Source: Limisphaerales bacterium (GTDB lineage Bacteria > Verrucomicrobiota > Verrucomicrobiia > Limisphaerales > AAA164-E04). From it: 64,000 nucleotides of DNA. Below, one piece after another: positions 33,492 to 64,000 of this stretch (position 1 is the stretch's first letter; the number at the start of each line of letters is the position of its first letter). The notes beneath the pieces are model-generated. The model ran no database searches. It was given only the letters and a program-made list of their open reading frames with translations, and was not told where the DNA came from. The DNA is taken from assembly GCA_965203425.1 (NCBI GenBank), contig OZ241891.1, forward strand, positions 809,310-873,309, in the 5' to 3' direction. A program made the position numbers and the translations under genes.

Positions 33492-34460
33492 ATGTGTTTA
33501 TCTTGGACTAAAGGAGCGGTCGAGGTGGTCTCAGAGCGGGACCGCCAAGGAAATCCTTTGCGTACCGTGCTTTGCACCGAAACCGGACTGGTCCGGAACG
33601 ATCCCGTGCCCGGCGACGAGGAGCTGGCGAAGTTTTACTCCGAGGATTACCGCATCGCATACAAGGGAGCTGATCGTCCGCGCCAGCGCCAGATTCTGAG
33701 AAATTTCCGGCGGGCAACCAGCCACATTCGCCGCTTCCAGGACATCATCGAACCGGCGGAAACAGTGTTGGACGTGGGAGCGGGATCGGGTGAATTCCTC
33801 TTTCTGATGCAGTCTCTGGGCAAGAGAGCTGTCGGGATCGAGCCGAACAGGAGCTATTCCGCTTGGTGCCGTGAGGAACTCAGGATCGACGTGCGCACCG
33901 CCCATCTTGGCCCCGGGTTGTTCGAGGTAGCGGGGGGGGGGGGGGGGGGCTTCGATCTGATCCGGCTCAACCACGTGCTTGAACACCTCAACGATCCGGT
34001 GAAGTACCTCGCCATGATCCGGGATTGGCTGGCGACTGAAGGAGTGCTCTATGTCGAGGTCCCGAACATCGAAGAAGACTGCCGCGTCAAATCACGCGGA
34101 AACTTGTTCCATTACGGGCACATATGGAATTTCAACCCTTGGACGCTGCGCGCCGTGGCGAGTCTGGCCGGACTTGAGGAGCTGGACGCGACCCGGGAGA
34201 GAAGCGCCGGCACGACCGGCGTCGTGTTCCGAAGCGGGCTGATGCGCACAACGGCGGATTTTGTCAACGCGGAGAACGCTGCCCGGGTGCGTAACATGAT
34301 TGCGCGGCATTACGCGGGTGACTTCCGCGAAGGGAAGGTAATGAAGCCGTTGATGAAACTGACGGCGCGGATCGAGGAAGTGGCAAGCAGCCTCTTCGCC
34401 GGCACGCCGCGGGACATCGGAGAGAAAGCGGTCCGCTCTCTTGAATCATATAAAACTTGA
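33492..34460 (+). CDS. Class I SAM-dependent methyltransferase containing a G18 tract
   Basis: VLDVGAGSGEF, HVLEHL.DP, EVPN; G18 at 33932-33949 read in frame as AGGGGGG. Confidence 0.9.
   Translation: MCLSWTKGAVEVVSERDRQGNPLRTVLCTETGLVRNDPVPGDEELAKFYSEDYRIAYKGADRPRQRQILRNFRRATSHIRRFQDIIEPAETVLDVGAGSGEFLFLMQSLGKRAVGIEPNRSYSAWCREELRIDVRTAHLGPGLFEVAGGGGGGFDLIRLNHVLEHLNDPVKYLAMIRDWLATEGVLYVEVPNIEEDCRVKSRGNLFHYGHIWNFNPWTLRAVASLAGLEELDATRERSAGTTGVVFRSGLMRTTADFVNAENAARVRNMIARHYAGDFREGKVMKPLMKLTARIEEVASSLFAGTPRDIGEKAVRSLESYKT
33932..33949 (+). repeat. Poly-G (18) homopolymer
   Basis: Counted directly. Confidence 0.95.
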
Positions 34461-43567: not shown

Positions 43568-43580
43568 CCCCCCCCCCCCC
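43568..43580 (+). repeat. Poly-C (13) homopolymer, intergenic
   Basis: Counted directly. Confidence 0.9.
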
Positions 43581-43656: not shown

Positions 43657-44217
43657 TTGCTTCCCCGCATCAGTCTGACCGGAGGGGCATCAACAAGCAG
43701 CGAGCAACTGGCCGATCTGATCGCCGATCCAACGCGCATTGCCCGCAATCTGACCGCTAATCTTTCCCAACCCATTTTCCAAGGCGGACGACTCCAAGCC
43801 CAAGCCCGACAAGCAAAAATCCGCAATCAAATCCAAGTGGAATCCTTTGTCGCCACCGCCCTGCAAGCTTTCCGAGAAGTGGAATCAGCCCTTGCCAGAG
43901 ACCGCTCGCTAGCCGCGCAAGAAGCCTTTCTAAAAGTGGAACTAGAGCAGGCCGACCTTGCCGAAACCCAAGCCAACCGCGAGTTTTCAGAAGGCCTCGT
44001 AACCATCATCCAAGTCCTCGAAGCTCAGCGCCGCGCCGTCAACGCCCGCAACGCCATGATCTCCCTCAAAAACCAGCGACTGCAAAACCGCATCAACCTC
44101 CACCTCGCGCTCGGCGGCGACTTCACCACCTCAATCCCCAACCCCAACCAAGAAACCAAACGCCTCGACAAGCCGAGAAATAATCAAAAAGCCGCCGATA
44201 TTGACGGCTCAATTTAG
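43657..44217 (+). pseudogene. C-terminal fragment of a TolC/NodT-family outer-membrane efflux protein
   Basis: LPRISLTG, QPIFQGGRL, AFREVESAL, VLEAQR, NLHLALGG; N-terminal half and signal missing. Confidence 0.8.
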
Positions 44218-58473: not shown

Positions 58474-59358
58474 ATGAAAGAACAAAAACATTTGAACGGT
58501 AGGAAGGCGAATTTGTCAAAATTCGGGCATCGGGCATCGGGCATCGGGCATCGGGCATCGGGCATCGGGCATCGGGCATCGGGCATCGGGCATAAGTCTG
58601 CTCTTTTAGCGGCGTTGATAGTGTCGGCGCTCTCTTTGGTTTCTTTGGAGCAAAGTCAAGCCCAGCTTCTTCTCACCATCAATCCCCTCCAAGGCGATAC
58701 CAACAACACAACCGTCTGGTCTTTCTCTGGCAGCTCCACCGCCTCCCAAACCAGCAACATCTCGGCCTCATCGGCAACATCCTTCGGCAGCAGAGGAAGC
58801 ATTAGCCCTTACGACGCGGTGGCCAATTTAGTGAACCTTCCCAGTGGCGGCACGCAATTCCTCACCTCAAGCGCGCCATCCCGATACTCAAGCTCGGGAA
58901 GTTACCATTCCTTGACGGCCAACTCCGCCAACCGGCCGCAGGTCGCCACGCCTTCCGGCACTAGAACCATCAGCCATATCTACTTGGTTAATGATTTCCA
59001 GTTGGATACGGTGGGCATTCGAGTCTCCGGAACAACTCCGCTCAGCTACACCAATGGAGCCTCTGTTTCTTGGACTGGGCAAGGCACCATGCCTTATCCT
59101 ATCGGCGACTTCAGTGTTACCGCCGCCAACCAGTATTATTACAACTTCCGATTCGGCCCTTATTTTGCGACGGCCGGCACTTTGGGGACGCCGAGTTCTG
59201 GCGGCTTTCGGATAATGGTTTCCAGCATGCCAAAGGCTTTGGTCCCAGAACCAGAGGAATATGCATTTGTGTTAGGTTTGTTTGCCTTGGCTTTTGTCAT
59301 TCTCCGCCGCCACCTCCAAAAGAAACAACGCCAAACCCAAGCCACCCCAACTTCGTAG
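58474..59358 (+). CDS. PEP-CTERM surface protein with heptamer repeat in leader
   Basis: Signal ...SQAQ; Ser/Thr-rich body; VPEPEEYAFVLGLFALAFVILRRH. Confidence 0.92.
   Translation: MKEQKHLNGRKANLSKFGHRASGIGHRASGIGHRASGIGHKSALLAALIVSALSLVSLEQSQAQLLLTINPLQGDTNNTTVWSFSGSSTASQTSNISASSATSFGSRGSISPYDAVANLVNLPSGGTQFLTSSAPSRYSSSGSYHSLTANSANRPQVATPSGTRTISHIYLVNDFQLDTVGIRVSGTTPLSYTNGASVSWTGQGTMPYPIGDFSVTAANQYYYNFRFGPYFATAGTLGTPSSGGFRIMVSSMPKALVPEPEEYAFVLGLFALAFVILRRHLQKKQRQTQATPTS
58523..58592 (+). repeat. (TCGGGCA)x10 perfect tandem repeat inside coding leader
   Basis: Counted directly: 10 units, 70 bp. Confidence 0.97.
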
Positions 59359-61228: not shown

Positions 61229-62713
61229 ATGAAGACAAGGAAAGTAACCACAAAACTATTGCTATCGCCGGACAACGATCCCTCTATGGCGCAACCGCCA
61301 AACTGGAAAAACCAAACCGTTCTAATAGGCGACAACATTGACATCATGCGAGCGATGAACTCGCAAACCTCAGACCTAATCGCAACCGATCCCCCATTCA
61401 ATAAACATAAGAAATTCGACCACATATTCGGCGGGAAAAAGGAATTTGGTTTCGATGACGCCTGGACTTTGCACGCCGAAAGAAACGAAGAGCATAAACT
61501 TCTGGAAAGCGATCACAACGACTTATACGAAGTCTGCAAAATAGGAGGGAAACTCCACTCCAAAGGAATGCTCGGCTACCTTGTATTCATGGGCGTCCGA
61601 CTCATTGAATGCAAAAGAATTCTAAAAGAAACAGGAAGCATCTACTTACATTGCGACCACTCGGCAAATACTTACCTGAGATTGCTGATGGACGGCATCT
61701 TCGGCCAACATAACTTCCGCAACGAAATCATCTGGCACTATGGAAAGACTTCTAACGCGGCGGCAAAGAAGTTTTTGCGCGGCCACGATACCATTCTTTT
61801 CTACGCCAAAAACGCCGAGTTGGCAACTTACAATTCGCAATTCGAAACTAGACTATCCATACGCAAACAGCAGTTAGTCGATTCTGGATACAACACGAAA
61901 AACATGAACGGGCATAGGTATCTCTACATTTACGATGAGGAAAAAGTGGACGCAAAAGTAAAGTCTGGGAAAATCAAAATAAGTGAATTTGACATCATCA
62001 GGCGTGTGGATACGACGAGAGGAAACGCTCTCACGACGGTTTGGGAAATAGATCATCTCAATTCGCAATCCAAAGAAAAATCTGGTTGGGCGACACAGAA
62101 ACCCATCGCGCTTTACTCTCGAATTATTTTGGCAAGCACCAATCCTGGCGACGTCGTCTTTGATCCGTTTTGCGGATGCGCAACTACTCTGGTTGCCGCC
62201 GAAAACGCCGGCCGGCAATGGATTGGCATTGACCGACATCCCGAAGCGGAAAAACAAGTCGTCCAACAACTCAATAAACTCAACAAGGGAACGGAAACCG
62301 AGACGCAAAACGAACTGGGGAAAGATTGGGGAAGAAGAGTAATCATAATTAACACTTACGAAAAAGATAAAGACGGAAAAGTAAAGAAAGATAAGAACGG
62401 GAAGTTTATATCTCTAAAACAGCTGCCCATCGCGCGAACCGATCTGGCCGCAACAATACCCTACAAAAAACATTTTAACGACCTATACACCAATCAGAAC
62501 GGCATATGTAAAGGATGCGGAAGACACGTCGATAAACATATCGCGCACATAGACCACAAAGTTCCCCGAACAAAAGGCGGACAAGATCACTTCGGCAACT
62601 TGCAAATCTTATGCTCCGGTTGTAATACGCTCAAAGGAAATAGAACCATGGCGTGGCTAATGAAAACGCTCAAAGAAAGGGGACTCATGGTTAATCAAAG
62701 CAACGCCTATTAA
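61229..62713 (+). CDS. N6A/N4C DNA methyltransferase fused to a C-terminal HNH domain
   Basis: DPPF (motif IV) precedes TQKP and DPFCGCATT (motif I); CKGC...HIDHKVP..KGG.....NLQILCSGCN. Confidence 0.92.
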   Translation: MKTRKVTTKLLLSPDNDPSMAQPPNWKNQTVLIGDNIDIMRAMNSQTSDLIATDPPFNKHKKFDHIFGGKKEFGFDDAWTLHAERNEEHKLLESDHNDLYEVCKIGGKLHSKGMLGYLVFMGVRLIECKRILKETGSIYLHCDHSANTYLRLLMDGIFGQHNFRNEIIWHYGKTSNAAAKKFLRGHDTILFYAKNAELATYNSQFETRLSIRKQQLVDSGYNTKNMNGHRYLYIYDEEKVDAKVKSGKIKISEFDIIRRVDTTRGNALTTVWEIDHLNSQSKEKSGWATQKPIALYSRIILASTNPGDVVFDPFCGCATTLVAAENAGRQWIGIDRHPEAEKQVVQQLNKLNKGTETETQNELGKDWGRRVIIINTYEKDKDGKVKKDKNGKFISLKQLPIARTDLAATIPYKKHFNDLYTNQNGICKGCGRHVDKHIAHIDHKVPRTKGGQDHFGNLQILCSGCNTLKGNRTMAWLMKTLKERGLMVNQSNAY

Positions 62714-63184: not shown

Positions 63185-63213
63185 TTGACTTTGCCGGCGC
63201 GCGGGGTTATTTT
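63185..63213 (+). promoter_or_regulatory. Putative sigma70 promoter for the PEP-CTERM gene
   Basis: TTGACT-N17-TATTTT, 35 nt upstream of ATG 63249. Confidence 0.4.
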
Positions 63214-63248
63214 TCATTTTTTAAACGGCAAATAATTTGCGATTTTTT

Positions 63249-64000
63249 ATGCATGAACAAAAGGACACTTCTCTTGGTCGGGCGGCTTCGAACTGCTCGG
63301 TTTTCTCGCAATCCGCAACACTCTGCCCCCCCCCCCCCCGCGCGCTAGTCGACTGAAACGGCTCTTTTTGGCCGCCGCAATCTTGGCAATCGCCGCCGAA
63401 AGCCAAGCCCAAATGCCGATTACGCTAGACGGCACCAATGGGATGCGGGCCATGAAAATCACTTTTGGAGGCGACGGAAACTATCGGCCTTCGAGAAACG
63501 CTTCGTTCACCAGAGGAAGCAGCGGCGTGGCCAATTCTTCTGATCCAAGTTTGGGATCAAGCACTCAGCTGAACACTCTTTTAGAAGCCCGTCCTTCAAG
63601 CCCATTTCCCTACAAAACAAACATCATAGGCAGTTTTAGCACAGGACAGTACGTTCCTTTCGACAGCGGCCTGCCGATGTCTCGAATCGCCAACGGAGCG
63701 ACAAATAGCTTCAATGTGATCGGCCTTCGCTTCCTCATCTCGAACGACGTTCATTACTGGGACTTTGTCACCGATTCTGCTTCCGCGCTTCCTGCGGGTA
63801 CCGGCCAAACCTACTCTTACACCGCCAACAGCGAACGTTTTTTCAGCTTGGATGCAACGGTGGGCGCCACTTTTGACCAAGCCTTCAACCCCGGCACTTT
63901 TCGGATGGGAGGCGACAGCGATGGCATCCAACTGAGGATTGTGCCGGAACCGGAAGAATACGCCTTGGTTGTCGGCTTGGGTTTGCTGGCCTTTGCGTTC
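63249..64000 (+). CDS. PEP-CTERM surface protein, out of frame at a C14 tract (phase-OFF or homopolymer error); runs off window
   Basis: MHEQK start resembles MKEQK of 58474; that frame stops at 63354-63356; downstream frame RLFLAAAILAIAAESQAQ...VPEPEEYALVVGLGLL is open to 64000. Confidence 0.85.
63326..63339 (+). repeat. Poly-C (14) homopolymer in coding leader
   Basis: Counted directly. Confidence 0.95.

Follow-up and report, generated by a model that had tools for sequence, protein, structure and literature searches.

The window analysed here, a stretch of 64,000 nt, ends within a gene that carries a homopolymer of 14 cytosines (C14) close to its 5′ end (63326..63339; the features of this locus all lie on the plus strand). 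By base composition (C ~0.258), fewer than 0.001 such tracts are expected per 64 kb, both strands included. Two ATG start codons precede the tract in different frames, start A at 63249..63251, with a TTG at 63237 in the same frame, and start B at 63253..63255, shifted by one frame. The tract, which we propose to be a slippage switch, reads as proline in all frames. At C14, translation from ATG 63249 gives MHEQKDTSLGRAASNCSVFSQSATLCPPPPRALVD, that is, 35 codons, and is closed by a TGA stop (63354..63356), and translation from ATG 63253 is closed after 31 codons by a TAG stop (63346..63348). The third frame encodes the body of the protein and is open from 63257 to beyond the window end, with its stop, TGA 64049-64051, 51 nt outside the window. 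It has no ATG, GTG or TTG ahead of TTG 63368, which itself lies within the hydrophobic core of the signal peptide. Behind both start codons and ahead of the body there is thus a repeat whose unit length is not divisible by three, and the wrong frames are closed by stops. The previous sequence-only reading had described the C14 tract and the stops shortly 3′ of it for both ATGs, and the translated frames agree. Its rescue lengths were right but incomplete: tracts divisible by three (C12, C15 or C18) join ATG 63249 to the body frame, as it had stated for C15 and C12, but it overlooked C13 and C16, which join ATG 63253. The gene is OFF only at tract lengths of 3n+2, one length class in three.

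A promoter-like site, TTGACT-17-TATTTT, is located upstream of the start codons at 63185..63213. It is the sole sigma-70-like match in L001 1-1300, for which shuffled sequences give a mean of 0.5, and the stretch is kept in the alignment of the five orthologs described below. The leader may also form a small hairpin with a 7-bp stem (63279..63299), a weak candidate: its pairs are kept in the five sequences, which are mostly invariant here, and the stem has no compensatory change. At E ≤ 1, Rfam recognised no RNA family between 62000 and 64000. One contig of run X10 (94 letters, depth 3.9) agrees with 30 letters of the leader (63250-63279) and has 64 unlike letters upstream; this contig could represent either a variant junction or a similar leader located elsewhere. 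Directly 5′ of the gene, a 494-aa ORF (61229-62713) shows, by eye, a DNA-methyltransferase-like part and an HNH-like end.

The body frame 3′ of the tract opens with a putative signal-peptide core (63341..63412), consisting of a basic n-region and a hydrophobic core that ends in ESQAQ, and at C14 this core has no in-frame start. Cleavage after ESQAQ is predicted from the small-residue rule. The public gene call for the locus, P0001, starts at the Met after ESQAQ; since P0001 begins 3′ of this motif, the signal peptide is absent from it. The mature body (63413..63937) is an all-beta domain of ~165-175 aa that belongs to no named family, and it is followed by a PEP-CTERM sorting signal with a PEP motif, a membrane helix and an arginine cluster (63938..64000, continuing to the stop at 64049-64051). 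The part of the tail beyond the window, read from the genome, comprises the membrane helix and six arginines. The tail scores 19.6 bits with TIGR02595, above the cut-off of 16, and 15.9 with Pfam PF07589, under the cut-off of 20.7; the Pfam search of the protein gave nothing besides the tail. The floc_PepA model (NF033554) matches only the C-terminal half with 36.1 bits, below its equivalog cut-off of 80. Exosortase genes are present in the genome, as two PF09721 matches of 142.4 and 137.5 bits (cut-off 25.7).

The AF2 model of the protein is all-beta with a C-terminal helix (mean pLDDT 80.4, pTM 0.75). A Foldseek search with the body model against PDB and BFVD returned nothing at E ≤ 0.001, and no fold was named for the body, as the best VIA-align hit among 48,161 chains (3zpe_A, Z 4.4, rmsd 3.2, 103 aligned residues) was too weak. 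A HMMER scan with the 170-residue body against 1.84 billion representatives found 15 proteins at E ≤ 0.001. Among these, giant proteins of 6375, 3457, 2861 and 1805 aa from other metagenomes (P0016-P0019) contain the body domain three to eight times. Small proteins with a single domain and an ordinary short signal peptide are also among the matches, and four of these have a VPEP tail as judged by eye. GEVED, He_PIG and beta-helix domains partner the body domain, which is apparently a repeat module, so far unnamed, of large surface proteins. In the gene studied here, the body may act in binding or adhesion at the cell surface, as a module whose family has no name.

Two related Limisphaerales MAGs (G001 and G006) each hold two orthologous copies of the gene, with 79-83% protein identity. 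All five orthologs of the three genomes have poly-C at the same site. The tract is C14 and the gene OFF in this genome; in G001, copy 1 has C10 and is OFF and copy 2 has C6 and is ON; in G006, copy 1 has C15 and is OFF and copy 2 has C14 and is ON. Two of the five are ON and three OFF, and all five bodies are intact, so that the repeat varies in length among close relatives with the remainder of the gene intact. Both ON orthologs translate the leader in the frame of ATG 63253. The MHEQK start, previously taken as the ON frame, is not the one used by these orthologs, which begin at the equivalent of ATG 63253 instead. Pairwise dN/dS on the downstream body, a check that the sequence-only reading had proposed, is 0.22-0.47 among the five orthologs, and their bodies are under purifying selection.

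Further alleles were found in databases. A collection of 5.8 billion proteins contains 15 relatives, each at least 67% identical. A proline-run leader is present in six of them (P3-P7 in P0003-P0007, and interrupted in P0014), and together these six use all three leader frames. Another eight of the 15 are gene calls with a shortened N-terminus, which is what OFF alleles should produce. In the JGI metagenomes, a scan for exact occurrences of a 25-letter consensus of the leader gave no match, and a protein-guided scan with P0001 gave no relative. Run X1, labelled as a sponge metagenome, contains a body relative that is 97% identical over 63446-64000, with 15 substitutions and two compensating indels, and an X1 contig with a different leader ends where the tract site begins (63326).

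These alleles bear on whether the gene is a decaying pseudogene, in which the frameshift would be a one-way loss and the tract a mutational scar. Decay would fit the OFF state here and in two of the four orthologs of other genomes, the annotated product P0001, which is a truncated call, and the allele P0014, in which the interrupted tract is accompanied by a break further along the body. However, a body of 236 codons is kept here without a stop, the dN/dS values given above indicate constraint, ON alleles exist among both the orthologs and the database relatives, and 31 of the 37 OFF repeat genes of the genome are intact except for the repeat. We consider decay highly improbable.

Long homopolymers can provoke transcriptional slippage. 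This property, and a tract that encodes proline in every frame, would suit an expression dial, in which slippage of RNA polymerase or of the ribosome on the 14 C's would yield some full-length protein at any DNA length, and the tract would only tune the amount. On the other hand, both wrong frames contain stops within 3-5 codons 3′ of the tract in all five orthologs, as at true ON/OFF loci, and start codons are available in two frames, as in the part of the Haemophilus licA account drawn on here (PMC2212159). None of the public runs that contain the stretch is an RNA run. A dial of this kind is unlikely in our view; RNA-level slippage could make the OFF state leaky.

The window also contains a comparison gene that belongs to a big family (58474..59358, plus strand). 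It encodes 294 aa, is in frame, and has 10.1 copies of TCGGGCA at 58523-58593. The sequence-only reading had pointed to a similar start, SQAQ site and VPEPEEYA tail in the two genes, and all of these are found in the translations, with MHEQK in the C14 gene and MKEQK in the comparison gene, ESQAQ and EQSQAQ, respectively, and VPEPEEYA in both. It had also correctly recognised a different repeat type at an equivalent place, as C14 and the TCGGGCA heptamers each lie between the start and the hydrophobic core of the signal peptide, and a dissimilar body, as BLASTP aligns 19/37 residues in the tail only and tblastn and hhalign are likewise limited to the tail. With tblastn, the 58474 protein has 95 paralog loci, and the protein of the C14 gene yields tail matches only. 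When the five orthologs were compared with 42 family members by hhalign, 34 tail columns were aligned and nothing else, which led us to reject a distant relationship between the body and the big family.

Since the repeat is at an equivalent place but the cargo is different, the C14 gene is not a paralog of the 58474 gene, as had been claimed; its body is a different domain in all three comparisons, and it does not join the 58474-type family by a homologous mature body. A shared leader DNA cassette was also considered and rejected, as the blastn matches of the leader in the genome were no longer than 14-16 nt, which is chance level. The tail shares 17-25 nt of DNA. The proposed constant-variable-constant gene architecture does not hold for the family either: the leader is not shared DNA, the bodies of the main family are homologous, and only the C14 gene, as an outlier, fits the scheme.

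Long G/C homopolymers are abundant in this genome. On the main contig, 89 poly-G/C tracts of 10-32 nt compare with 9 poly-A/T tracts of at least 10 nt. Tracts of at least 13 nt number 68 in this genome, 49 in G001, 61 in G006, 18 in G002 and 11 each in G007, G022 and G034, and 0-7 in the remaining 34 of the 41 genomes searched. The tracts show no replication-strand bias (42 vs 47). We examined 96 loci, namely the 95 paralog loci of the 58474 protein and the C14 gene. A leader repeat is present at 55 of them (19 heptamer, 24 poly-G and 12 poly-C, where one heptamer array is perhaps counted twice), and the earlier expectation that other family members have leader repeats is supported, with three repeat kinds; the other 41 loci have no leader repeat, and many of these are fragments. 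Among the 55 repeat loci, 18 are ON, 31 are OFF yet would open on the gain or loss of one or two units, and the remaining 6 are broken or partial, so that the tally of in-frame and out-of-frame genes, another check proposed earlier, amounts to 18 ON and 31 OFF among 49 intact repeat genes. The ON share is 14/41 for single-start genes and 4/8 for dual-start genes, and starts in two frames occur in 7 of the 12 poly-C genes. An ON share near one third is also expected from neutral drift of tract lengths.

Tract length also varies within the genome. Of 9 pairs of copies whose 150-nt flanks are identical, 8 have tracts of unequal length (11/15/16/17, 20/21 and 18/14, with 23/23 equal). A repeated element with 150-nt flanks that are 99-100% identical occurs in four copies, at G000:C1 101043, 2387036, 3018921 and 3218128, with C16, C11, C15 and C17, respectively. 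MutS and MutL are intact in the genome, and thus no general repair defect raises slippage. The gated set seems to be wider than the PEP-CTERM family.

Several tracts adjoin genes of other kinds. Tracts of 11-13 nt adjoin sequences that, by eye, encode prepilin-type N-terminal motifs (G000:C1 1726647, 3005764, 2329278, 591897 and 3885876). Three longer tracts, of 20-24 nt, stand at the start of frames with 1626-1839 codons (G000:C1 584730, 1468142 and 3054517). Inside the window, a G18 tract (33932-33949) lies in frame within a 322-aa ORF (33492..34460), where it encodes six glycines; this ORF resembles a SAM-dependent methyltransferase by eye. A C13 tract (43568-43580) is located just 5′ of an ORF (43657..44217) whose translation, judged by eye, resembles the final part of an outer-membrane efflux factor, and the longest frame downstream of this tract is out of register with the nearest upstream ATG.

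The length of the C14 tract was checked on the assembled contigs of public runs. Contigs of X7 (depth 201), which may be the source of this assembly, and of X9 (depth 2.8), from another study, both contain C14, with zero differences over 1201 nt. X10 contigs break at 63333 and restart at 63371; this break and the small-share sponge runs X2-X6 were left out of the evidence. If the tract were an assembly or sequencing miscall, its real length would be C13, C15 or C16 and the gene would simply be ON. The relatives are chromosome-level MAG records and the near completeness of this assembly, in 3 contigs, points to long reads, which err in homopolymers. However, C14 is exact in the k-mer contigs of two runs from two studies, one of them deep and possibly the assembly's own source, and a miscall is therefore unlikely at this locus. 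Three of the five orthologs are OFF, at other lengths. In addition, 13 of the 15 intact heptamer-gated genes are OFF, and heptamer arrays are much less prone to miscalls, so that homopolymer miscalls cannot explain the pattern. Taken together, we regard a miscall as very unlikely. Since C14 is seen in both of two near-identical populations, the tract is not wildly unstable.

The long tracts have a polar flank. Read in the C orientation, 52 of the 68 tracts of at least 13 nt in this genome have GC directly after them, against a mirror flank in 4 of 68 and a background of 13.7%, and the same flank follows 43 of 49 tracts in G001 (mirror 2) and 43 of 61 in G006 (mirror 0). It does not depend on which of C and G the sense strand carries, and at the C14 gene it occupies 63340-63341. 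Outside the family, it accompanies 22 of 33 tracts with unique flanks in unrelated genes. GC after long tracts is far commoner than chance allows. The tracts might be products of a lineage-specific, sequence-directed seeding or maintenance, that is, of a programmed hypermutation system, and not passive slippage sites, although we give this idea rather little credence. If true, the system would serve about 50 surface-protein genes together with pilin-like, giant-protein and methyltransferase genes.

For the gene itself, we consider it likely that an exosortase-sorted PEP-CTERM surface protein is gated by a slipped-strand poly-C contingency switch. The hypermutable poly-C, between the start codons and the signal-peptide core, would gate translation, and slipped-strand mispairing in replication, the presumed cause of the length changes, would let the tract gain or lose one or more C's. 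With each start codon in a frame of its own, the full pre-protein would result from lengths of 3n (start A) and of 3n+1 (start B), and lengths of 3n+2, such as C14, would yield only a peptide of 31 or 35 residues. The leader would be removed together with the signal peptide, so that the frame in which it is read would be irrelevant. After signal-peptide cleavage, the protein would be processed by exosortase and displayed on the surface, and switching would presumably be reversible within a population. The C14 gene would be one unit among about 50 independently switching surface-protein genes, and random on/off switching of surface proteins is probable in this Verrucomicrobium.

Repeat-driven surface switching is textbook knowledge for a handful of host-adapted pathogens, and here it would operate on a large scale in an uncultured Limisphaerales bacterium, with 49 intact gated genes in the PEP-CTERM set alone, three repeat types and the little-understood exosortase pathway. 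This scale suggests strong fluctuating selection on the cell surface by phages, grazers or a host. The switching design also offers a natural handle on the function of PEP-CTERM proteins. Since gene callers truncate gated genes, as in P0001, which starts after the signal peptide, the surface repertoires of such genomes are under-annotated.

The layout resembles known contingency loci. In the part of the literature on Neisseria gonorrhoeae opa considered here (PMC3745409), CTCTT repeats lie in the coding sequence of the leader peptide, the gene is present in about 11 copies, and ~1e-3 switches occur per cell per generation. As in opa, the repeat is inside the leader-peptide coding region, the gain or loss of units would set the frame, and a multi-copy family of surface proteins would switch gene by gene. 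Unlike opa as described there, with a pentamer in ~11 genes, the repeats here are homopolymers and heptamers in about 50 genes; the cargo is of the PEP-CTERM/exosortase class instead of beta-barrel outer-membrane proteins; and the bearer is an uncultured Verrucomicrobium instead of a pathogen with a human host. In the portion used of the account of licA (lic1) of Haemophilus influenzae (PMC2212159), CAAT repeats are preceded by start codons in two of the three frames. As in licA, starts in two frames 5′ of the repeat make two length classes ON and one OFF, a layout shared by ATG 63249/ATG 63253 and by the dual-start poly-C genes (7/12) of this genome. In contrast to the C14 gene, licA as described there has a tetranucleotide repeat and is the gene of a cytoplasmic enzyme, without a signal peptide and not part of a gene family.

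The accounts of Campylobacter and Helicobacter considered here, in part, likewise place long G/C homopolymers at the 5′ ends of surface-structure genes, with tens per genome; set against these, the tracts of this genome reach 32 nt and have the polar GC flank. Campylobacter and Helicobacter are not known to have MutS/MutL-type repair, whereas the present genome has both MutS and MutL. The C-terminal PEP motif, helix and basic cluster, together with exosortase genes in the genome, match PEP-CTERM/exosortase protein sorting as outlined for Haft 2006, cited in PMC3048395. In the part of that Akkermansia genome report considered (PMC3048395), homopolymers in 17 genes and 21 PEP-CTERM proteins are treated as separate matters. 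The literature surveyed, represented largely by titles and abstracts, contained no paper that joins PEP-CTERM or exosortase cargo to repeat-driven switching, and at the same level the literature on homopolymers or phase variation in Verrucomicrobia and on sponge Limisphaerales contained no account of such a system. The proposed mechanism is a classical one, that of Neisseria opa and Haemophilus licA, and it is new in its lineage and cargo class.
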